From NCBI GenBank assembly GCA_964597885.1, contig CAZQZX010000001.1:9849-73848 (forward strand): a DNA stretch of 64,000 bases, written 5' to 3'. Positions 22,963-36,601 of the stretch are shown one piece after another. A program made the translations under genes and the position numbers. The notes under the pieces were generated by a model that was given only the letters and a program-made list of their open reading frames with translations, did no database searches and was not told the DNA's origin. The stretch is from an uncultured Planctomycetota bacterium (GTDB lineage Bacteria > Planctomycetota > JACOTG01 > JAUIME01). The stretch's first letter is position 1. Every line of letters begins with the position of its first letter.

Positions 22963-25224
22963 CTACTTGCGGCGGACCTTCAGGCGCCGGATGAGCCGAT
23001 GCGCCCGCAGGGACTGCGACGAGCCCGGTTCGCGCTCGGCCACTTCCTCGAGGAACGCGAGCAGCTTCCCGCGGTCGTCGAAGCGCATGGCGATCCCGAG
23101 CAGCGCGTTCTCGACAAGGCTCTCCTTGCCGCGGTCGGCCTCGACGGCGCGACACCAGTTGTCGTACGCGCGGTCCCGGTCGAGGTATTCGGGGTGGGCA
23201 TCGAAGAACTCGACACAAGCCGCGCAGCCCGGAAGGGACCCGCCCTGGAACAGATGGGCGAGGCTCGTGAAGCAGCGCGGGTCCGGTTCGTCCCCGGCCA
23301 GTTCGATGGCTTTCTCGTAGGCCTCCACCGCCTCGATCACGCGATGGTCGGTGTCGAGGGACAGCGCTAGGTTGAACCAGACCTGCGCGCTCTCGGGCTC
23401 GTGGACGAGGATCTGCCGGAACAGCTCCTGGGCGTCGCCGTGCCGGCCCGCGTCGTCGAGGATCGCGGCCTCGATGTTCAGCAGATGAAGATCGCCTCCG
23501 GGTCGGATCTTGCCCCCGTCGGCCAGTTGTCGGCGCGCGGTCTGGATGGCCGCGAGCCCTTCGTCGAGGCTCCCGCGCCGGGCGTGGATCTTGGCGAGGA
23601 GCGACCATGCCCGCGCCGAGTCGCCGCGCAGCTCGAGGGATCGGTCGATCCGCTCGAGAGCCTCATCGAAACGTTTCTGTTTCTCCTGCACCCAGGCGAG
23701 GGCGTAGTGGACGTGCGCGCATTCGTCGAGGGGACCGGAGGCAGCATGGAAGAACTGCTCGGCGTCGGTGAGGTTGTCGTACTCGCGTGCGATCTCTCCG
23801 AGCAGCACCAGCGCGAGCGGGTTGGCGGGCTCTCGTTCGAGGGTGCTCCTCGCTCGGTCTCCCGCCTCGTCGAACCGTTCGGCCTCGAAGTCGAGGAGCG
23901 CGTGCCCGAGCTCGCGGACCGTCGCATCGTCTTCGTCCTCTCGAGGGGCCCGGCCTTGCATGCCACCCTCGAGGGCCCGCGCGATCGAGTCTTCGGGATC
24001 GAGCGAGAGGGCGGTGCGAAGCTCGCGTGCGGCCGCGTCGTCGTCGTCGTCGAGCCAGCGCTCGATCGCCCGTGCGGCCGCGGCGTCGGCCCGGCGCATC
24101 TCTTCCTCGGTCGGGGGTCGGTCGAGCATCGTCCTCGCTAGCAGAAGGACGAGCACGAGGGCGGCAAGGCCCGTGACGGCTCGCAACGGATGTCGGCGCA
24201 GGGCGGCCGCCGCGAGGCGAGCCGGTCCCGGGGGGCGTCCCTTCACGGGCTGGCCGTCGAGGAACCGACCGAGGTCGTCGGCGAGTTCACGCGCGGTCTC
24301 GTAGCGGTGCTTCGGATCGTGCGCCGCCGCCTTCATGACGATCCGGTCGAGATCCCGAGGCACGTTGCCGAAGAGCCGGCGCGGCGGCGCGAAACCGCCT
24401 CGAATCACCGCCTGGATGATCATCTCGCGCGATTGCTGCTCGTACGCGGGCTGGCCGACGAGCAGCTCGTACAGGATCATCCCGATGCCGTAGACGTCGG
24501 TGCGAGGGTCGGCGGGCTCGCCTCGGATGCGCTCCGGCGCCATGTAGCGCGGCGTCCCCACGAGGTCCCCGGTGGAAGTGAGCGAGGGGAGATCGTCGGC
24601 GGCCATGAGGCCGAAGTCGAGGAGGACCGGCGTCCCGTCGCGCCGCAGCATCACGTTCTGCGGCTTCAGGTCGCGATGCAGGATCCCTTGATCGTGGGCG
24701 GCCTGCACGGCGTCCGAGAGCGTGCGCGCGATCTCGGCGGCGCGTCGCCCGGATTCGGTTCCCGTGATCGACGAGAGCGACTCGCCCTCGATGAGGTCCA
24801 TCACGATGTAGGGCGTGCCGTCCTCGATGCCCGACTCGTGGACGGCGACGATGTTCTCGTGCTCGAGCCGCGCGAGCGTCTGCATCTCGCGACGGAAGCG
24901 CTCCATCGCTCTCGGCCCGGAGAGCGGTGCGAACGGAAGCAGCTTGATGGCGTACGATCGCTCGCCGTGCTCCCCTTCGTACACGACGCCCATGCCTCCG
25001 CGTCCGATCTCGCGAAGGATGCGGTAGGGGCCGATGAGCTTCTGCTCGGCCGGCGCAGCATCGCACACCGCGTCGAACGTCCGGAGCGTCGCGCGGATCG
25101 CTTCGAGCAGTCGTGGGTGCGTCGACTCGTGGTTCGATGCGAACGCTTCGGGAGAGAGTGACGGATCCTCGTCGCGCGCGTCGAGAAAGTCGGCGACGAG
25201 ATCCTCGAGCGACGGTTCAGTCAT
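22963..25224 (-). CDS. Ser/Thr protein kinase with a C-terminal TPR-repeat domain
   Basis: Hanks kinase motifs GRGGMGVVY, HRDLKPQNVML, DFG and GTPRYMAPE. A TM segment and TPR repeats are in the C-terminal half. Confidence 0.8.
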   Translation of the reverse strand: MTEPSLEDLVADFLDARDEDPSLSPEAFASNHESTHPRLLEAIRATLRTFDAVCDAAPAEQKLIGPYRILREIGRGGMGVVYEGEHGERSYAIKLLPFAPLSGPRAMERFRREMQTLARLEHENIVAVHESGIEDGTPYIVMDLIEGESLSSITGTESGRRAAEIARTLSDAVQAAHDQGILHRDLKPQNVMLRRDGTPVLLDFGLMAADDLPSLTSTGDLVGTPRYMAPERIRGEPADPRTDVYGIGMILYELLVGQPAYEQQSREMIIQAVIRGGFAPPRRLFGNVPRDLDRIVMKAAAHDPKHRYETARELADDLGRFLDGQPVKGRPPGPARLAAAALRRHPLRAVTGLAALVLVLLLARTMLDRPPTEEEMRRADAAAARAIERWLDDDDDAAARELRTALSLDPEDSIARALEGGMQGRAPREDEDDATVRELGHALLDFEAERFDEAGDRARSTLEREPANPLALVLLGEIAREYDNLTDAEQFFHAASGPLDECAHVHYALAWVQEKQKRFDEALERIDRSLELRGDSARAWSLLAKIHARRGSLDEGLAAIQTARRQLADGGKIRPGGDLHLLNIEAAILDDAGRHGDAQELFRQILVHEPESAQVWFNLALSLDTDHRVIEAVEAYEKAIELAGDEPDPRCFTSLAHLFQGGSLPGCAACVEFFDAHPEYLDRDRAYDNWCRAVEADRGKESLVENALLGIAMRFDDRGKLLAFLEEVAEREPGSSQSLRAHRLIRRLKVRRK

Positions 25225-25822
25225 CCTGGATGCCGCTCATCGCGATGCCGAGGCGGGAGAGCGCCCGGTTGTACAGCTTCGAGACGGCCTCGGGCGTCTT
25301 GCCGAGCGCTTGCGCCGCCTCCTGATTCGACTGGTTTTCGAACGCGCGCAGGAAGAGCACTTCGCGCATGTTCTCGGGAAGCTTTCCGATGCACAGCTCG
25401 AGCTTCTCGTAGAGCGCCGAATCCCAGTACGTGAGCTCGTCGTCGTCGCCGGGGACGCGGCTGAGCATCGAGTCGGAGAGCGGGACGTCGCCGGCTCGCT
25501 TCTGCGCTTTGAAGTAGTCGAACTTCTTGCGGATCTTGTTCAGCACGCACACGTGGAGGTAGCGGTTGAACGAGTCGCGGCCTTCCGGCTGGAAGTGGTC
25601 GATGTCGTCGACCACGTCCTTGAAGACGCTCTGCAGGATGTCCTCCGATTGGAGGCGGGTGCGCAGAGCCGGACCGAGGCGGCAGCGGGTGTAGAGCAGC
25701 AGCCGATCGCGGTAGCGCAGGTACAGCGCATCCCAGGCCTTCGGATCGCCGTCCTTGGCTCGATGGACGAGGTCGGTCGAGACTTCGCCGTCCGGGATCG
25801 GGGAAGTGGGTTCGCGCTCCAT
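25217..25822 (-). CDS. ECF-type sigma-70 factor, operonic with the Ser/Thr kinase (8-nt overlap)
   Basis: ATG at 25822 (MEREPTSPIP). Region 2 is LVHRAKDGDPKAWDALYLRYRDRLLLY. Region 4 is LPENMREVLFLRAFENQSNQEAAQALGKTPEAVSKL. Confidence 0.7.
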   Translation of the reverse strand: MEREPTSPIPDGEVSTDLVHRAKDGDPKAWDALYLRYRDRLLLYTRCRLGPALRTRLQSEDILQSVFKDVVDDIDHFQPEGRDSFNRYLHVCVLNKIRKKFDYFKAQKRAGDVPLSDSMLSRVPGDDDELTYWDSALYEKLELCIGKLPENMREVLFLRAFENQSNQEAAQALGKTPEAVSKLYNRALSRLGIAMSGIQDD

Positions 25823-25936
25823 GGGGACTCCTGCTGGCCATTGTAGCCGCCTCGCCGGGGGGAGGAAAGAACGCACACTTTGTTGCAACCGGCGGGGAGG
25901 CAAGCCGGTATGCTGCGTTGAACCGCGAGGATCTGC

Positions 25937-26434
25937 ATGAGCTCGAACCGTTCCACGCCGCTCGCGACGGACCTCGATCGACGCATCGTCGACGAGATTC
26001 CGCGGGTGCGCGCGTTCCTCAGAAGGCTGTGCGCCGAGGAAGCCGAGGACCTCGTCCAGGAGGTGGCGGCCCGGGCCCTGCGATCGCGGGACTCGTTTCG
26101 CGACGAGGGCACGCTACGGGGCTGGCTCCTGCGGACGGCCTTTCGCGCGTATCTCGATCATCGGGAGCGCGAGCGGCGGAGCCCGATCCGGCTGGGCGAG
26201 CACGACACCGAGCTCGAGGATGAGAAGAGGCCGTCGTCGCCAAGCCCGGAGCTGCGCGAAGAGGTCGCGAAGCTGCTCGATCGGCTCCCTGCGATCGAGA
26301 GGGAGATCCTCGAGCGGTTCCATCGAGAGGGGCAATCCGTCCGCGAGATCGCGCGGGCGATATCGATGCCCGAAGGCACGGTGAAGTCGCACTTGCACCG
26401 GGCACGACGGCGATTGGCGAGGCGAGAAGGATGA
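25937..26434 (+). CDS. ECF sigma factor (cassette 1)
   Basis: Region 2 is AEDLVQEVAARALRSRDSFRDEGTLRGWLLRTAFRAYLD. Region 4 is LPAIEREILERFHREGQSVREIARAISMPEGTVKSHLHRARRRL. Confidence 0.75.
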   Translation: MSSNRSTPLATDLDRRIVDEIPRVRAFLRRLCAEEAEDLVQEVAARALRSRDSFRDEGTLRGWLLRTAFRAYLDHRERERRSPIRLGEHDTELEDEKRPSSPSPELREEVAKLLDRLPAIEREILERFHREGQSVREIARAISMPEGTVKSHLHRARRRLARREG

Positions 26435-26946
26435 CGATGGACGAGCACGGCTATCGCGAACGGCTTCAGGCCTGCCTCGACGAGCGGCGCGACCCGCTCG
26501 ACGATGCCGTTCTCTGCGATTGGCTACTGGAGCATCCCGAGCACCTCGAGGAGCTGGCTCGGTTGCGGGAGACGCTCGCGGTGCTCGAATCCGCGGACGA
26601 GACCCCCGCGACCTTGGCGCCTCCGAGCGATCGGCGAGACGGCATCGGCCGAGGATGGAAGCGCGTCGCCGCGGTGGCGGCGGTGCTCGCGCTTTGCGTC
26701 TTCGGCTGGCGTCTTCTGGAATTGTCCGCCCCGCCACCGCGGACGGAAGAAGAAGTGCCACTCGTCGGCATCGTGCCTCCGGGCCGGGTGCTCGACTACC
26801 GGATGTCGGTCGTGGTGGAGCGCCCGAGCGAACGCGTCGCGACGACGTCGAGCGCGAGCGGACGCACCCGCAGCCGAACCTACGATCACGGCTCGAGCCG
26901 ACTCGAGGTGGTCACCGAAGAACGACGAATCGTCAGCGCTCGCTAG
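26431..26946 (+). CDS. Membrane-anchored anti-sigma factor (cassette 1)
   Basis: ATGA start/stop overlap with the sigma gene. It has an N-terminal anti-sigma helix domain, one TM helix (VAAVAAVLALCVFGW) and a short periplasmic tail. Confidence 0.55.
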   Translation: MTMDEHGYRERLQACLDERRDPLDDAVLCDWLLEHPEHLEELARLRETLAVLESADETPATLAPPSDRRDGIGRGWKRVAAVAAVLALCVFGWRLLELSAPPPRTEEEVPLVGIVPPGRVLDYRMSVVVERPSERVATTSSASGRTRSRTYDHGSSRLEVVTEERRIVSAR

Positions 26947-26974
26947 CGTGGCGAAACTGGAGAGGAGAGTCCGA

Positions 26975-27886
26975 ATGCGACGAATCGAACCCTGCGTCCT
27001 CGCGATGTTGATGGCCCTGTGGATGGCGTCCGCGGCGACCGCTCAGAGCGTGGAGCCCACGCTGCAGATCTACGATGTTCGCGATCTCGTGCAGTCTGCC
27101 GACGTCGAAGGTGAGGTGGACGAAGTTCGCGCGAAGAGGATCGAGGAGGCCACCGAGCATCTGGCCGAGGTGATCCGCGAATACGTGCAGCCCGAGTTCG
27201 AAGCCGGGCGAGAGGAGACGAAGGCGATCCTGACCGGCTCGATCGCCGTGATCGGCCGACCCGAGCAGCACCAGTGGACGCGTCGGTTCCTCGAGCACCA
27301 GAGGAAGAGCCAGGGCGTGTACTTCGACATCTCGGCGCGGTTCATCACGGTCGATGATGGCACGTTCGAGTTCGTCTTTCCGGAGCTCGAGCCGCAGGTC
27401 TTCGACGACGAAGAGGCCGGCGCGCTCGTGTCTCGGTTGCTCGAGCAGCAGGGCGCCGACGTCCTCAGTGCTCCGCGACTGCTCGTCCTGAACCGCCAGA
27501 AAGCCATGATCAGCGTCGGCAAGCAGATCAAGTACGTCCGCGACTACGAGGTCCACGAGAACGTACTGCCGGGAGATCGAACGCTCGAGGTACCGATCGT
27601 CGATTCGATCTTCGAGGGCATCGAGTTCGGGGGGCGGGTGACGAGGCTCGACGGATCGCTCGGTCTCGAAGTGTCGCTCGACGTGTCCGATCTCGAGCGA
27701 CCGATCCCGACGCTCGACACGCCCTACGGCCCGGTCGCGCTGCCCGAGCTGACGAAGGTGCGGCTGGAGTCGACGCTCCACATGGCCGACGGCGCCACCG
27801 CGGTCTTCCCCGGTCGGCGCGATGACGGGCGCAACCTGCTGATCGTCATCCGGGTGGCCCGCGTGGATCTCGACGAGCACCGGTAA
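26975..27886 (+). CDS. Mini-secretin: secreted 303-aa protein with one Secretin_N-like domain and a secretin-family C-domain
   Basis: ATG at 26975 with a GGAGAGGAG RBS. Signal peptide MRRIEPCVLAMLMALWMASAATAQS. GADVLSAPRLLVLNRQKAMISVGKQIKYV matches the secretin-domain core (vLs.P.l.tlnnq.A.i.vG). The C-terminus is NLLIVIRVARV. Confidence 0.55.
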   Translation: MRRIEPCVLAMLMALWMASAATAQSVEPTLQIYDVRDLVQSADVEGEVDEVRAKRIEEATEHLAEVIREYVQPEFEAGREETKAILTGSIAVIGRPEQHQWTRRFLEHQRKSQGVYFDISARFITVDDGTFEFVFPELEPQVFDDEEAGALVSRLLEQQGADVLSAPRLLVLNRQKAMISVGKQIKYVRDYEVHENVLPGDRTLEVPIVDSIFEGIEFGGRVTRLDGSLGLEVSLDVSDLERPIPTLDTPYGPVALPELTKVRLESTLHMADGATAVFPGRRDDGRNLLIVIRVARVDLDEHR

Positions 27887-27937
27887 CCGGTATCGGGCGG
27901 GCACGGCCGCGACGCCGTGCCCGGCCCGAGCGCATCC

Positions 27938-28022
27938 CCGCCCTCGGCCCGGCCTTTCCCTGCCTGCCTGCCTCCCCTGGCCTGCCCCGGCCTGGCTTGG
28001 CCTTTCCTTTCCTCCCTTCCCG
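27938..28022. repeat. Pyrimidine-rich low-complexity tract built from degenerate GGCCT/TGCC units
   Basis: The 85-nt tract between the cassette-1 stop and cassette-2 sigma start is almost all C and T on the + strand, with G only in GG dinucleotides (cccgccctcggcccGGCCTttccctGCCTGCCTGCCTcccctGGCCTgccccGGCCTGGCTTGGCCTttcctttcctcccttcc). Confidence 0.6.
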
Positions 28023-28185
28023 GCTGGCGCCACTCCAACCCCCGCCACAGAAGCCGGTTGCGTTCCCCCGTCGCGATCCGCGAAACTTCCTGGAAGAAAC
28101 CGCTAAGCGCCGGAAGCCTCTACGTCGTCCATGGCGTGGAACTGCAAAGAGGCAAGCGCGCGCCGGAAACGACCCGGACGCGTCC

Positions 28186-28768
28186 GGTGGATGCGAACGG
28201 GGCAGGAGAGACGGTGCTCGGACGCCGGAAGACGCGAGATTCGATCGACGAGACAGCCGGGGAGTGGGAGCGTCGGGCCCTCGAGGCACGACCGCGCCTG
28301 GTCTCGATCGCCGAGCGTGTCTTGCGGCATCGCGGAGACGCGGAGGACACGGCGGACGAAGCGATCAGCCGTCTCGCCCGCGAGCTTCGCGGGGGCGTCC
28401 AGTTCGTCGAGATCGAGCCCTGGCTCGTGAGGACGACCCTGCATCTCGCGATCGACCGCGCGCGTCAGTGGGTTCGGCGCAACGCGAAGCTTCACGATCT
28501 GTGGCGCTCGCGTCGGGCCGAGTCGGATCCGCGGGCCGAGGCCGAGAAGGCGGAGGCTCGCGAGGAAGTCTGGCGGCGGATCCTCGAGCTGCCCGAGAAG
28601 CGCCAGCAGGTCGTGGTGCTTCGGGACATGGAAGGGCTCGCGTACGCGGAAGTCGCTCGGATCCTCGGGATCCGGGAGTCGACGGCCCGGGCGCACGTCT
28701 ACGCGGCGCGCGAAGAGCTTCGCCGCAAGCTCGCACGATACGTGCGAGCGGAAGGGAATGACGGATGA
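28186..28768 (+). CDS. ECF sigma factor (cassette 2), start uncertain (GTG 28186 or GTG 28134)
   Basis: Region 2 is EWERRALEARPRLVSIAERVLRHRGDAEDTADEAISRLARELRGG. Region 4 is LPEKRQQVVVLRDMEGLAYAEVARILGIRESTARAHVYAAREELRRKL. It is a paralogue of 25937..26434. Confidence 0.6.
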
Positions 28769-29241
28769 AAGAAGAACACGAAGAGTCGAGCCGACGAGCG
28801 ATCGATGAGCGGTTGCACCGCGCGGTCGACGGCGAGCTGTCGGACGCGGAGTCGAGGGCCCTCGACGAAGCGCTCGATCGCGAACCGGAGCTGCGTGGCG
28901 AGCTGACCGAGCTCGAGAGCCTGCGCGATCTCATCTCCGACGTCGGGAGCTCGCCTCGCTTCGAGGCGGCCCCCGAGGGCCGTGCGCCGCTGCACGTTGG
29001 GTTACGCCGCTTCACGTCTTTTGCGGCAGCTGCGGCCGTGCTGCTGCTCGCGGGTGTGCTCGTGCTGCGTACGGATCGCGACCGCACCTCGCCGGACGGC
29101 GTCGAACCGGTCGGCCCGGACGCGCCGGCGGCCTCGCTCGAGATGCGCGTTGCGGAAGGAGAGGCGAGCCCGATGGTCGTCCCGCTGCCGAGTCGGCAGC
29201 CGGATGTCCACATCTTCTGGGTCTACCCCTTCGAGTCCTGA
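28765..29241 (+). CDS. Membrane-anchored anti-sigma factor (cassette 2)
   Basis: ATGA overlap with the sigma gene. Acidic N-terminal helix, TM helix (FAAAAAVLLLAGVLVL) and a short periplasmic tail. Confidence 0.55.
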   Translation: MKEEHEESSRRAIDERLHRAVDGELSDAESRALDEALDREPELRGELTELESLRDLISDVGSSPRFEAAPEGRAPLHVGLRRFTSFAAAAAVLLLAGVLVLRTDRDRTSPDGVEPVGPDAPAASLEMRVAEGEASPMVVPLPSRQPDVHIFWVYPFES

Positions 29242-29299
29242 GACTGACAAGACGAATCAATTCGCTCTCTCCCGAGAGAAGAGAAAGGAGCTTGGACCG

Positions 29300-30232
29300 A
29301 TGAAGTCACCGAGAACCGCGGTTTGGATGCTGCTCGTGGTGCTGCTTGGAACGTTGCCGTCGACGCTGTGCGCGCAGGATGGGCAGGGCAACGGGATCGA
29401 AGAGCTCGTCATCAAGACCTATGCGCTCGAGCACGCCCGTGCCTCCGATGTGGCCGGCGTCCTCGAGAGCGTCATCATCGGAAACTTCCGGATCGTGCCC
29501 GAGATGCGAACCAACCGCCTCATCGTGTCGGCCGGTGCTTCGCTTCACGCGAAGATGGTGGACACCATCACGACGCTCGATCGGCCGGTGAAGCAGGCCG
29601 CGGTGGCGCCGGGGACGGTCACCGAGATCCTCACGCCGCGGCATCGTCCGGTGAGCGCGCTCCTCGAGACGCTGCAGATGAACCTGTCGCGCGGCGGCCG
29701 CATCGTCGCCGACGAAGCGCGCAACGCGATCGTCGTCCGGGACGAAGCCGACAACGTGCGCTCGGTGAAGGCGCTCATGAACGACCTCGACGTCGCTTCG
29801 CGAGGGCTGTCGCTGCAGTTTCTGATCCTCGGCCCGGGCGGGCAGGATATGTCGAAGGTCCCGGATGCGAAGAAGGTGACCTCGGAGCTCGAATCCCTCG
29901 GCCTGAGCGGCTACGGGATCCGCGGGCGGGCGGCCGTCCGCTCCGTCGAGATGTCGAAGTTCGGCGCCGAGGGAATGTTCGACCGCGGCATGGTCTCGAT
30001 CGACGGGCGCGTGCGGCTGGTCCCGGATGGCGGCATCGCCGAGCTCGATCTGCGGGCGAAGATCAGCCTCGACATCGAGGTCGAGGACGCCCGCAAGATG
30101 GTCCCCGCGGTGGCGCAGATCACTTCGACGCTTCGGGTTCCGCTCGGGCATCTCGTGGTCGTCGGCCTGGCGCCGGCCGGGGGCGAGCCGAGCGAGCCGC
30201 TGGTCCTCGTGGTGCGCGCGGTCGCGGAATAG
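29300..30232 (+). CDS. Mini-secretin: secreted 310-aa protein with two Secretin_N-like domains and a secretin-family C-domain
   Basis: ATG at 29300 with an AAAGGAG RBS. Signal peptide [26 protein letters not shown]. The two Secretin_N-like repeats are [24 protein letters not shown]...[23 protein letters not shown] and LETLQMNL...[23 protein letters not shown]. The C-terminus is HLVVVGLAP...LVLVVRAV. Confidence 0.6.
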
Positions 30233-33205: not shown

Positions 33206-33283
33206 GGAAATCTCCGCATCAGGGCCCGTCTCGATGATCCGAACTCGCACCGATCGGGGCAAGAGGCTGATAGAATCGGGACC

Positions 33284-36200
33284 ATGAGCCGCATCGTCAA
33301 GCGCATCGCGAAGATCGCCGTCCTCGGGCTCCTGGTCGTGCTCCTGATCGGGGGGCTGCTCGGGCCTCGACTCGCGTCGGGTCTCGTGAAGTCGAAGGTC
33401 GTCGCGCTCCTCTCGGAGAAGGTGGACGGTTCCGTCACGATCGACGGTCTGTCGCTCGGGTGGCTCTCGGGGGTCTCTCTCCGCGGTCTCGTGGTGGAAG
33501 ATCCGGAAAGCGGAGCGCCCGCGCTCACGGTGACGAAGGCGACGGCGCATCCCGAGATCTTGCGGCTGATCGGTGGCGACATCATCGTGCGCGGCGTCGA
33601 GATCGAGGGAGTCGACGTCCACGCGGTGCGTCGCGACGGTGAGTGGAATCTCGCGCGGATCCTCGTACCGAGCGACGGCGGTGAGGCGCCGCCCGCAAAG
33701 CCGCGGCGCGGTCGACCCGGATCGATGCCGCAGACGCGCAATCCGACCGAGGTGCCGCCGCTCAGGATCGACGCGACGGTCCGCGACGTCACCGTTCGAC
33801 TCGACGAAGGCGACGGAGCCGAGCCGGTCACGATCCGGGCGATCGATCGGATGGAGGTCGACGTCAAGACGGGCGAGCCGATCCGCATCGATCTCGCGGG
33901 CCTCGACGGCGTCACGATCGACGGGACGCTCGACTTGTTCGACGGCGCGACGTTGCGCGACGAGCTCACGCGCAGCGGAAGCTTCGAGGTGCGCGCCTCG
34001 GATCGAGATCTCGAGTGGCTGCTCGCGCTCTTGCCCTCGAGCCTTCGGTCGCAGTTCGTGAATGAGGACGACGGCACTCCGCGGGTCGCGTTCGAGCGAG
34101 CGGATCTCGATCACACCGTGACGCTCGAGGGTTCCTCCCTGCGAGTGGCCGGCACCGCGGGCCTGAGCGATGTCGTCCTCGCGGCTGCGCGCGCCGCGTT
34201 CGAGGAAGGCGAGTCCGCCGAAGACGGTTCGGAAGGCGACGACTCGGCAAGCCGAGAGCCCGCGGCCCCGCGCGAGATCGACGCCCTCACGCTCACCGTG
34301 GATCTCGCGATCGCGCTCGGCGAGGATCCCTGGCCGACGGGCGATGTCCGACTCTCGACCGGCGAGGCGCTCGTCCCGATGGAGGGAGGCTCCGAACCGC
34401 TGCGCGTCGATTCGGTGGCCGCGCATGTCGTGCTCGGCGAGCGCAAGCAGATCCGGCTGAAGTCGTCGCGTATCGAGAGCGATGTGCTGGTCGCCGAGGT
34501 CACGGGTGCGCTCTCGCTCTTCGGCGAGTCTCCGAGCGGGACGGCCAACGTTCAAGGTTCGCTCGAGCTCGGAACGCTTTCGAAGGCGATGGCCGCGATT
34601 CCGGAATCGGGGGGCGAGGTCGAGCTCGAGGCGACGCTCCTTCCGGGCGATGCCGACGGGCGATTCGAGCTGCGCGGGACCGTACGGTCGGAAGCCGTCG
34701 AGACTCGCGCCGGCGAGGCGACGATCCGGGACGGGAACGTCGACCTGCAGTACGTCTTGATGTTCGACCCGGCCGAGATGTGGATCGGTATCGATCGCGT
34801 GACCTGGACATCGGATTTGCTGACGCTGCGGACGGAGGGCGGGGAGTTCCGTTCGATCGATGACTTCGACAACATGGCGGGGGTCGTCAAGATCGCGGCC
34901 GAGACCGAGCTCGCTCCGATCCGCGAGATGCTGCCCGAGGTTCTTCCGCGGGCGCTGCGTGGCCGCACGACGGTCCGAGGCGAGCTGTGGTCAGGGGTGG
35001 GGAAGAAGGCCGTCGACCTCTCCTTCACGGGGACGGGTCTCGCTCTCGAGGATGCCGAAGGACAGCCGCTCGAGCTGGGCGACGCCTCCGCGAAGGCCAC
35101 GATGTCGGTCGAAGGCCGCGAGCTCGACGTGCTCGAGCTGACCGCGGAGACGTCGGCCGCGAGCGTAACGGCGAAGGGGAAGCTCACGGGCCGCAAGGAG
35201 GCGCTGCCTCGCGGGGAGCTCGCGATCACCGCGCGCGCGTCGATCGAGCCGCTCCGCGCGATGCTCCCGACGGCACCCATCCCCGAGGGCCTGGCCGGGA
35301 TCTTCACGGTGGAGGGCACCGCGAAGTCGACGAAGAAGGTTGCGCTCGACCTCGGCGTCATGGGCTCGCGAGTCCGCCTCGCGGTGGACGACGAGGCCGA
35401 CAAGACGCTCGCCACGCGCGTGCGCGGTACGGTCGACCCCGAGACGCTGGCGATCGACTGCCCTCAGGTGCCGTTCTCGATCGACGGCATGAAGGGCACC
35501 GCTTCGGTCCGGATGACGCCGGGCGAGGATCTGGCGCTTGCGGGCCGCTTCGATCTGGGGCTGGAATCGCTTCGCGATGCGTTCGCGGTATATGCGCCCG
35601 ACGGCATCACGGCGACCGGCGATGGAACGATGACCTTTGACGTCTCGCTTCCGCTCGCGGAGGAGAGCACGCCGTCCGACCTGGTCGTCGACGCGACGCT
35701 CGCGGTCGAGCGGCTCGAGGTCGCGGACTGCGTCCTCGACGGGGCGAGCCTCGAGCTCGGCGTCGCGGACGGCGTCGCCGAGGTGCGCAACGGCAAGGCT
35801 CGGGTGAACGGCGGCGCCACGACGTTCGGCGGTCAGCTGCAGTACGCCGCGACCCCGCGCGTCGTGTTCGCGGAGCTCGATGCGAAGGGCGTCGGCGTTT
35901 CGGGCGAGACGCAGGGCATCCTCGCGCGCGTGATCCCGCTCTTCGCCGGAATCGGCGTCGTCGTCGAGGCGGCCACCGATCTGGACGTGGAGCTGACGGC
36001 ACAGGGCGCGGACGTCGAGGCCATGAAGCGATCGTTGCGCGGCGGGGGAACGATCGCCGTCCGGCAAGGGACGATTCGCGGCAACTCGCGGCTGACGCGC
36101 ATCCTCTCCGACCTCGGAGAGGAGGGGGACTTCGAGTTCGAGGAGTTCGCGTCCCGTTTCACGATCATGGACGGCGCCGTCCTGCAGGATCCGTTCGCGA

Positions 36201-36601
36201 TCCGTGCGAGGCAGGCCGAGCTCCGGTTGTCGGGTGTCGTGGCCTTCGACGGTCGACTCGACTACGCGATCGACGTGAAGCCGCTCGGCCAGAGCGCTCG
36301 CAACGTGCGGCGCTACGCGCGCATCCTCGACCCGGACGGCTACATCCCGTTCGGGCTCGGCGGCACGCTCGCCTCGCCGGCCGTCCGTGTTCCGAGCCCG
36401 GAGGATGTCGTGGAGAATGTCCTCGACGGCCTCCTCGATCGCGGCGTCGATCGGCTCCTTCGAGATCGTGATCGAGACGAGGAACGCGACAAGGAGCGCC
36501 GGAAGAAGCCCAAGGCCAACCCGAACAAGAAGAAGAAGAACGACAAGAAGAAGGAAGATCAGGAGAAGAAGAAAAAGAAGAAGAAGGACAAAGACGGCTA
36601 G
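33284..36601 (+). CDS. AsmA-family large exported protein (N-terminal TM anchor, AsmA_2-like C-region) with a poly-lysine C-terminal tail
   Basis: ATG at 33284 (MSRIVKRIAKIAVLGLLVVLLIGGLLG is a TM helix). 1105 aa rich in beta-strand character. The C-terminal block GTIRGNSRLTRILSDLG...LRLSGVVAFDGRLDYAIDVKPLG resembles AsmA C-terminal regions. The tail is KKKKNDKKKEDQEKKKKKKKDKDG. Confidence 0.5.
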   Translation: MSRIVKRIAKIAVLGLLVVLLIGGLLGPRLASGLVKSKVVALLSEKVDGSVTIDGLSLGWLSGVSLRGLVVEDPESGAPALTVTKATAHPEILRLIGGDIIVRGVEIEGVDVHAVRRDGEWNLARILVPSDGGEAPPAKPRRGRPGSMPQTRNPTEVPPLRIDATVRDVTVRLDEGDGAEPVTIRAIDRMEVDVKTGEPIRIDLAGLDGVTIDGTLDLFDGATLRDELTRSGSFEVRASDRDLEWLLALLPSSLRSQFVNEDDGTPRVAFERADLDHTVTLEGSSLRVAGTAGLSDVVLAAARAAFEEGESAEDGSEGDDSASREPAAPREIDALTLTVDLAIALGEDPWPTGDVRLSTGEALVPMEGGSEPLRVDSVAAHVVLGERKQIRLKSSRIESDVLVAEVTGALSLFGESPSGTANVQGSLELGTLSKAMAAIPESGGEVELEATLLPGDADGRFELRGTVRSEAVETRAGEATIRDGNVDLQYVLMFDPAEMWIGIDRVTWTSDLLTLRTEGGEFRSIDDFDNMAGVVKIAAETELAPIREMLPEVLPRALRGRTTVRGELWSGVGKKAVDLSFTGTGLALEDAEGQPLELGDASAKATMSVEGRELDVLELTAETSAASVTAKGKLTGRKEALPRGELAITARASIEPLRAMLPTAPIPEGLAGIFTVEGTAKSTKKVALDLGVMGSRVRLAVDDEADKTLATRVRGTVDPETLAIDCPQVPFSIDGMKGTASVRMTPGEDLALAGRFDLGLESLRDAFAVYAPDGITATGDGTMTFDVSLPLAEESTPSDLVVDATLAVERLEVADCVLDGASLELGVADGVAEVRNGKARVNGGATTFGGQLQYAATPRVVFAELDAKGVGVSGETQGILARVIPLFAGIGVVVEAATDLDVELTAQGADVEAMKRSLRGGGTIAVRQGTIRGNSRLTRILSDLGEEGDFEFEEFASRFTIMDGAVLQDPFAIRARQAELRLSGVVAFDGRLDYAIDVKPLGQSARNVRRYARILDPDGYIPFGLGGTLASPAVRVPSPEDVVENVLDGLLDRGVDRLLRDRDRDEERDKERRKKPKANPNKKKKNDKKKEDQEKKKKKKKDKDG

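Follow-up and report, generated by a model that had tools for sequence, protein, structure and literature searches.

A minimal, lip-less secretin subfamily linked to an ECF sigma/anti-sigma switch in Planctomycetota

We analysed a 64-kb stretch of DNA from an uncultured Planctomycetota bacterium (hereafter the window), in which two consecutive sets of three genes on the same strand each encode an extracytoplasmic function (ECF) sigma factor, a candidate anti-sigma factor and a small exported protein. An earlier note on this DNA had picked out these two triads, and all six genes were recovered. With promoters predicted upstream of each triad, the region is two independent, autoregulated three-gene ECF operons, here termed cassette 1 and cassette 2. 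The third gene of cassette 1, sec1, encodes what is, judging from its Pfam match and structural model, a genuine but stripped-down secretin-fold protein. Moreover, cassette 1 is a widespread and unnamed module that combines an ECF group, its promoter, an anti-sigma factor with a short periplasmic beta-tail and a "lip-less" secretin of ~300-370 amino acids (aa). The novelty lies in a minimal, lip-less secretin subfamily that is hard-wired to an ECF sigma/anti-sigma switch. G+C content is 65-70% throughout the window, and genes were defined by open reading frames (ORFs) with high third-position G+C.

The secretin-like protein of cassette 1

The sec1 gene (26975-27886, plus strand) encodes a protein of 303 aa with a signal peptide, an N3-like, ring-building domain (residues ~29-111) and a compact secretin core (~116-297). 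Residues 158-280 match positions 5-121 of the 169-position Pfam Secretin model (PF00263) with 33.6 bits, against a cut-off of 27.5, and the motif quoted in the earlier note, GADVLSAPRLLVLNRQKAMISVGKQIKY, is present at residues 160-187. There was no Pfam Secretin_N match, and the N3-like domain is visible only by structure and profile. An AlphaFold2 model built from a 40-sequence alignment was confident (predicted local distance difference test, pLDDT, 91.9; predicted template modelling score, pTM, 0.81) and consists of a beta-alpha-beta-beta-alpha domain at residues 29-111 and, behind it, a core rich in beta structure with strands of 22-24 residues. When this model was compared with the PDB by Foldseek, the top 30 matches were all secretins, and the closest solved relatives are those of type IV pili (T4P), Tad systems, type II secretion systems (T2SS) and phages. 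A viral fold library returned one secretin-like match. A profile of the sec1 family matches f1 pIV across N3 and into the first part of the secretin domain (E 1.3e-7), and is colinear with residues 349-490 of BfpB without large gaps. In the model, a superposable two-layer beta core stands behind an N3-type domain, as is characteristic of the secretin superfamily. The HMM (hidden Markov model) search and structure prediction that the earlier note had proposed as a check therefore came out in its favour for sec1, with a Secretin match above cut-off and a confident secretin-like fold.

Much of what is familiar from secretins is missing or altered. Classical members of PF00263 (f1 pIV, Tad RcpA, BfpB of type IVb pili, PilQ, GspD/PulD and InvG) are 400-750 aa or more in length, whereas mature sec1 has ~280 aa. 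Unlike these proteins it has no N0 domain: the N3-like domain, from about residue 29, opens the mature protein, with no match to STN/N0 in Pfam or NCBIfam. The segment VPxLGDIPxLGxLF and the S domain are also absent, and Pfam model positions 122-169 are unmatched. In the sec1 family a median of 16 aa separates the dG motif from the last strand, after which a tail of 21 aa follows.

A further difference is in the lip. In solved secretins the lip and the amphipathic helical loop (AHL) reach into the outer membrane (PMC10499894), and the beta-lip of pIV comprises residues 199-234, with Gate-1 hinge glycines at G267 and G297 (PMC8563730). The beta-lip is 36 aa long in pIV and 51-60 aa in T2SS secretins (PMC8563730, PMC10499894); at the same position sec1 has ~12 residues, and the lip region of the model contains two short helices. 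Across 138 family members the lip region as a whole, from the first strand to the AP motif (R122..P167 in sec1), has a median length of 45 aa (quartiles 45-46), compared with ~69 in pIV and ~98 in Vibrio cholerae PilQ. Relative to the family profile, pIV carries an insertion of 24 residues and V. cholerae PilQ one of 52, exactly at the pIV beta-lip. At the AHL position, which was placed by our own reading of the Pfam consensus rather than by structural superposition, the sec1 model has no helix after residue 157, and the family has instead a specific, nearly invariant ERPIPT...P loop. The Gate-1-type hairpin is long in the model (176-197 / 202-225). Its second hinge glycine, G215, is conserved in 138/138 family members; the first, G182, is present in sec1 itself, yet glycine occupies this position in only 16/138. 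The suggestion in the earlier note that the small proteins might form a sigma-regulated export pore is weakened by the loss, across the sec1 family, of N0, most of the beta-lip, the S domain and a conserved first hinge glycine.

Distribution, gene order and promoter of the module

Word-indexed homologue searches returned few matches to sec1 (4, 2 and 8), and the family was revealed by an exhaustive HMMER search over 1.84 billion cluster representatives (50% identity). The number of representatives identified was 266 at E<1e-30 and rose to 1270 at E<1e-10, the lower tiers probably including classical secretins; the sec1 family is thus at least ~150-266 clusters at 50% identity. Members are 24-41% identical to sec1. 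Among the best 150 matches, 137 are 228-400 aa long, and another five, of 600-640 aa, are doubles fused in tandem. Such tandem fusions of two complete mini-secretin units occur in P0026, P0053, P0075, P0087, P0096 and P0163 (locus L013, 6001-7926). All named members are annotated as "hypothetical protein" and come from metagenome-assembled genomes (MAGs) of Planctomycetes/Planctomycetota, and lip-less mini-secretins appear to be widespread in Planctomycetota-like bacteria. Neither Pfam nor NCBIfam holds a specific model or a named family for these proteins. The view of the earlier note that a stand-alone secretin of ~300 aa beside sigma and anti-sigma genes fits no described family therefore holds for sec1. 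In literature searches that covered ECF factors with secretins, secretins of reduced size and the contexts of planctomycete ECF genes, the module was not described, the key planctomycete ECF surveys being outside the reach of these searches. The main text of the ECF classification paper makes no mention of secretins.

The co-occurrence survey that the earlier note had called for was carried out on ten sec1-family contexts, the members in which share 25-41% identity with sec1. The order ECF sigma factor, small membrane protein, secretin-like protein was found in 9/10, namely the window and loci L004, L007, L008, L009, L011, L013, L014 and L016; the tenth context was L005. In L014 the anti-sigma gene is interrupted by masked bases and is still recognisable. 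No genes for T2SS, type III secretion systems, T4P, Tad or phage assembly were found in the examined parts of the window or in the ten sampled contexts. Unlike classical secretins, members of the sec1 family in these contexts are never found beside secretion or pilus genes and are almost always found beside a sigma/anti-sigma pair.

In the window, sigma1 (25937-26434, plus strand) encodes an ECF sigma factor of 165 aa, with matches to Sigma70_r2 (46.5 bits) and Sigma70_r4_2 (54.5 bits) in Pfam and to TIGR02937 (77 bits). It is followed by anti-sigma1 (26431-26946, plus strand), which encodes 171 aa with one transmembrane helix. The ATGA overlap between sigma and anti-sigma genes described in the earlier note was seen at this junction and at that of cassette 2; in each pair the two genes are translationally coupled. 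In an all-versus-all comparison, sigma1 groups with the sigma factors of other sec1-type triads (67-164 bits), whilst the orthologues of sigma2, the sigma factor of cassette 2, form a separate group, with ~30 bits between the two. The sigma factors linked to sec1 are thus a defined ECF group with a clear, conserved promoter and partner set.

Both candidate anti-sigma factors have a single hydrophobic helix and a C-terminal tail of 60-75 aa, and in both cassettes the periplasmic tails carry conserved beta-type motifs. Their assignment is based on position, topology, weak NCBIfam matches and, for anti-sigma2, a weak zf-HC2 match; that of anti-sigma1, which matches no Pfam family and has only a weak NCBIfam anti-sigma match, is based also on a conserved N-terminal motif. 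Anti-sigma1 comprises this motif (LDERRDPLDD), a helix at residues ~78-95 and a periplasmic tail of ~75 aa with PGRVLDYRxxV. In an alignment of six orthologues from sec1-type triads, an N-terminal LDxRxDPxxD and a periplasmic (P)GR(V/I)LxY/W-R-x-x-V are conserved, and both types of motif are also present in L014. The extended cytoplasmic motif of this family, LDERRDPLDD...L...PE.LEE (window 26431-26600 and orthologues), matches no Pfam anti-sigma domain, and the N-terminal region may represent an unclassified type of anti-sigma domain. No FecR, STN or DUF4974 match was found in anti-sigma1 or anti-sigma2. Both cassettes have the make-up of an ECF module, that is, a sigma factor with sigma-2 and sigma-4 domains only, an adjoining, co-directional membrane anti-sigma factor, along with a promoter of their own.

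A conserved ECF-type promoter is predicted directly before sigma1 (promoter 1, 25884-25910, plus strand), with TGCAACC as the -35 element, a spacer of 15 nt and CGGTA as the -10 element. TGCAACC-N15-CGGTA occurs once in the window, where 0.07 occurrences are expected by chance. Moreover, each of L004, L007, L008, L011, L012, L014 and L016 (L011 and L012 being one sequence from two assemblies) has a single TGCAACC-N15/16-CGGTA, which lies directly upstream of the sigma gene of its sec1-type triad, and L009 carries the variant TGCAACC-N15-AGGTA. This position and single occurrence are the expected signature of an autoregulated ECF promoter, and therefore sec1 is predicted to be under the control of sigma1. 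A scan for sigma-70 promoters and terminators was uninformative.

Proposed function of cassette 1

The wiring of the sec1 family to a regulator pair points to an undescribed envelope-signalling module. We infer that cassette 1 is such a module, autoregulated, in which the secretin-like protein would be a target of the sigma factor and would also be the periplasmic partner of the anti-sigma tail, and we hold this reading to be about as probable as all others together. The secretin-like protein would assemble in the periplasm, either beneath the outer membrane or against its inner face, and could there act as the periplasmic partner that shields the anti-sigma tail, in the manner of FecA/FoxA with FecR/FoxR or of RseB with RseA. 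Disturbance of this complex would leave the anti-sigma factor open to proteolysis and free the sigma factor, which would re-induce its own operon, including the gene for the secretin-like protein. The latter would thus serve as sensor-partner and target rather than as a conventional export channel.

Two known systems offer precedents. In E. coli, RseB binds the periplasmic domain of RseA and gates its proteolysis. The RpoE-RseA-RseB (ECF02) operon context (PMC7826278) shares with cassette 1 the order sigma factor, anti-sigma factor, exported protein. In contrast to RseB, to which it has no relation in sequence or fold, sec1 is encoded with a different sigma group and promoter. The second likeness is to FecI-FecR-FecA, PupI-PupR-PupB and FoxI-FoxR-FoxA, in which the genes for an ECF sigma factor, an anti-sigma factor with a single membrane pass and an envelope protein with a small alpha/beta domain likewise lie together. 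In this cell-surface signalling the periplasmic part of the anti-sigma factor is stabilised by binding to the small secretin/TonB-type domain of the outer-membrane transducer (PMC7186176, PMC11637429), and the sigma factor has the envelope protein as a target, as proposed for sec1. Unlike the FecIRA type, however, the cassettes have no adjoining TonB-dependent transducer, and their anti-sigma factors have no FecR/STN domains and a tail of only ~60-75 aa. The partner here would be a protein with a secretin core, and its interaction with the anti-sigma factor is proposed by analogy. With neither a TonB-dependent transducer nor a FecR-type anti-sigma factor, cassette 1 is not a member of the cell-surface signalling family.

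Several observations weigh against the signalling role. In L005, on a contig of 2.1 kb, the gene upstream of the secretin-like gene is Bax1-I and not a sigma/anti-sigma pair. The anti-sigma factor of L013 is a zf-HC2/HEAT protein of 605 aa rather than a short-tailed protein, so that a single conserved mode of docking is not guaranteed. The shared operon and promoter are equally compatible with sec1 being an output only. Lastly, the colinearity of the core with BfpB 349-490 and the invariance of G215 make a gated ring possible.

These last points lead to the strongest competing explanation, in which sec1 would form a minimal gated ring in the outer membrane and be the chief member of the regulon under its ECF sigma factor, produced in response to envelope stress so that something can be released or taken up, and without any part in sensing. 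It would account for the secretin fold, the long Gate-1-type hairpin and the invariant second hinge glycine as well as the BfpB-like core; the operon is the sole site of a sigma1-type promoter in the 64 kb, and the tandem-fused doubles suggest side-by-side packing as in a ring, secretin channels being rings of 12-17 subunits. Against this stand the reduction of the beta-lip to about a third or less of its length in pIV and T2SS secretins, the lack of a predicted helix at the AHL position, a first hinge glycine kept in few of the homologues, and the absence of N0 for contact with an inner-membrane machine, of a pilotin-binding S domain, of a lipobox and of substrate or ATPase genes nearby. With lip, N0 and targeting elements missing, a conventional channel is argued against and a ring is still possible; we regard the output-only explanation as unlikely, and a conventional export pore as less likely than a signalling module. 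No lipobox was found in sec1 or in sec2 (the exported protein of cassette 2), nor is one conserved among orthologues, and a lipoprotein secretin was rejected for this reason.

Alternatively, the small proteins could be the ring component, in the outer membrane or the periplasm, of a T2SS, type IV pilus or Tad machine encoded elsewhere, with the sigma/anti-sigma pair regulating that machine. The closest solved relatives of sec1 belong to such machines or to phages, and the N-domains of sec2 resemble GspD N1-N3. However, N0, the domain that contacts partners of the GspC/PilP type, is missing, T2SS, T4P and Tad genes were found in 0/10 sampled contexts, the invariant partner is the sigma/anti-sigma pair, and in the sampled regions the promoter motif is confined to the triad operon. 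We consider this explanation improbable.

Cassette 2, neighbouring genes and significance

Cassette 2 follows after a spacer of 327 nt (end of sec1 to start of sigma2), in which no intrinsic terminator was detected after sec1 and of which 27930-28035 is C/T-rich and of low complexity (ccctgcctgcctgcctcccctggcctgcccc...cctttcctttcctcccttccc). Its predicted, conserved ECF-type promoter (promoter 2, 28101-28130, plus strand) consists of CGCTAAGCG, a spacer of 16 nt and CGTCC. The sigma2 orthologues of L001 and L008 are preceded by CGCTAAGCG-N16-CGTCC at unchanged spacing, and a looser form of the motif has one match in the window. The sigma2 gene (28214-28768, plus strand) encodes an ECF sigma factor of 184 aa from a GTG start preceded by an AGGAGA Shine-Dalgarno sequence. 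It matches Sigma70_r4_2 (53.9 bits) and Sigma70_r2 (23.8 bits) in Pfam; its best NCBIfam model, a GFO_1088/PG0214-type ECF, scores 88.6 bits, under the cut-off of 130. The adjoining anti-sigma2 gene (28765-29241, plus strand) encodes 158 aa with one transmembrane helix and a zf-HC2-like N-terminus (17.1 bits, below the cut-off of 22.2); NCBIfam anti-sigma matches are weak, and in an alignment of three orthologues the periplasmic tail ends in a conserved PDVHIFWVYP. Gene calls made independently in other assemblies of this organism yield products of 165, 171, 303 and 184 aa, together with an anti-sigma2 of 158 aa, and their 184-aa product fixes the start of sigma2 at GTG 28214; orthologues of sigma2 have 183 and 179 aa. 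Strong Shine-Dalgarno sites lie 6-8 nt upstream of sec1 (GGAGAGGAG) and sec2 (AAGGAG), and third-position G+C (GC3) is 0.82-0.85 in both cassettes, like that of neighbouring genes. Scans of the whole window against Rfam and for tRNAs were empty.

The sec2 gene (29300-30232, plus strand) encodes a protein of 310 aa with a signal peptide, two ring-building Secretin_N domains (residues ~37-168) and an unclassified, beta-rich C-terminal domain of ~140 aa. Sec-type signal peptides are present at the N-termini of both sec1 and sec2, as the earlier note had predicted. Pfam Secretin_N (PF03958) matches sec2 in two stretches with 80.1 bits, and these N-domains match those of GspD, PilQ and SctC in NCBIfam and the PDB (a GspD N-domain in the PDB at E 8e-8). 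In contrast, the C-terminal 144-148 aa of three orthologues have no Pfam match even at E<=10, nor does this domain match the sec1-family HMM. The earlier note had assigned Secretin_N and a secretin C-domain to each protein; with Pfam the former was recovered for sec2 only, and the latter for sec1 only. On sequence, sec2 belongs to the secretin superfamily through its Secretin_N domains, without a recognisable secretin C-terminal domain. Comparison of sec2 with the sec1 family by hhalign recovered only a 23-column strand motif (T.L.VP.GH.VVVG versus T.L.ADGAT.V), with a score of 19.1 against 13.0+-2.3 for column shuffles, of which 2/150 reached 19.1. Judged by eye, the sec2 C-terminal domain runs from a strand through a short loop and a helix to a G-x-x-I/V...RA strand. 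In this order of elements it may resemble the two ends of the sec1 core with the Gate-1 hairpin left out, which is a lead and not a result. An AlphaFold2 model of sec2 from a two-sequence alignment (pLDDT 39) was unusable. Three members of the sec2 family were found, in a narrow lineage, and genome and metagenome scans with the sec2 alignment gave only irrelevant Secretin_N proteins. At the opposite size extreme of the superfamily from sec1 is a secretin of 2849 aa from a Phycisphaerae MAG (L006, 22-8571), in which dozens of Secretin_N repeats precede a classical secretin domain.

The two cassettes had been described in the earlier note as paralogous, and as a tandem duplication in an expanding family. 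This was not borne out. Between sec1 and sec2 there is no BLASTP similarity (best E 5.3), and the profile-profile probability is 0.5-12%; sigma1 and sigma2 are 28% identical, and the anti-sigma factors are unrelated (E 0.68). An HMM of 138 sec1 relatives, searched against six frames of the window, matched sec1 only. Moreover, the cassettes belong to different ECF groups and have different promoters. They are analogous and not detectable paralogues, and cassette 2 would follow the same logic with unrelated parts (another ECF group and promoter, a zf-HC2-like anti-sigma factor and a two-Secretin_N protein).

The pairing of both cassettes is old. In L008 (a 45-kb contig, with a sec1 orthologue 41% identical) the order is PLP (pyridoxal phosphate)-dependent decarboxylase, kinase, ECF sigma factor, cassette 1, cassette 2 and FKBP. 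In L001/L011 (a 213-kb contig, with a sec1 orthologue in L011 36% identical) both cassettes are present with a block of ~11.5 kb between them, and downstream genes for AsmA-like, CarboxypepD_reg, Fpg and GSDH proteins are common to L001/L011 and the window. The intervening block (JGI contig Ga0255745_1000102, ~73.4-83.3 kb) encodes NnrS, Rrf2, a molybdopterin oxidoreductase, a 4Fe-4S protein, EB_dh and a chaperone. A recent tandem duplication of the cassettes, or their descent as pseudogene remnants from a truncated full-length gspD/pilQ, was rejected as extremely improbable. Shared gene order, similar gene lengths and matches of both third proteins to secretin-related Pfam models speak for such an origin. 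Against it, sec1 and sec2 are not significantly similar to each other, and neither are the two anti-sigma factors; the identity of the sigma factors is low, the promoters differ, L008 and L001/L011 already have two equally distinct cassettes, >130 homologues are equally short, with signal peptides and a confident compact fold, and GC3 matches that of neighbouring genes.

The earlier note had further taken a third ECF sigma factor, paired with a kinase immediately upstream, as a sign of an expanding family. The pair is real and lies on the minus strand (22963-25822), with an ECF sigma factor gene (25217-25822, planctomycete PF07638 type) overlapping that of a 753-aa Ser/Thr kinase with TPR (22963-25224, Pfam). 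It is of another, kinase-linked ECF type: the same overlap of an ECF gene with a Hanks-type Ser/Thr kinase gene is known from ECF43-type systems such as EcfK-PknS (PMC13147305). In contrast to the triads it has no anti-sigma or secretin-like gene and belongs to a different ECF group, and it is thus a conserved neighbour, not a third cassette. Divergent from sigma1, the pair is conserved beside cassette 1 in L008 (1726-4579) and L011 (1926-4771), in each case with the gene for the PLP-dependent decarboxylase on its far side. A regulatory link from the kinase-controlled sigma factor to cassette 1 is possible. Elsewhere in the window, 33260-36601 (ORF from 32609) encodes a giant AsmA/DUF748-like envelope protein with a poly-lysine end (KKKKNDKKKEDQEKKKKKKKDKDG), followed on the opposite strand by a gene for a 1039-aa protein in which CarboxypepD_reg domains are repeated; L001 shows synteny for both. 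Between 45240 and 47900 (~2.6 kb) no ORF passes the third-position G+C filter, though there are long ORFs on both strands.

To our knowledge, secretins are known only as giant gated portals that serve machines for secretion, pili and phage export. With ~280 residues in its mature form, sec1 and its family would be by far the smallest secretin-fold proteins, and they are genetically tied to a sigma/anti-sigma switch instead of a machine. A bolder and rather doubtful proposal is that lip-less mini-secretins form a new class of envelope sensor, in which a ring or smaller oligomer under the outer membrane holds the anti-sigma tail and its disturbance triggers the ECF response. If true, this would be TonB-independent cell-surface signalling built from a channel fold minus its channel parts. 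The conserved promoter and partner set make the system directly testable in a heterologous host, and sec1 offers a minimal model for the folding and oligomerisation of the secretin core. Moreover, the module provides a first functional handle on "hypothetical proteins" that are common in the poorly studied genomes of Planctomycetota-like bacteria.

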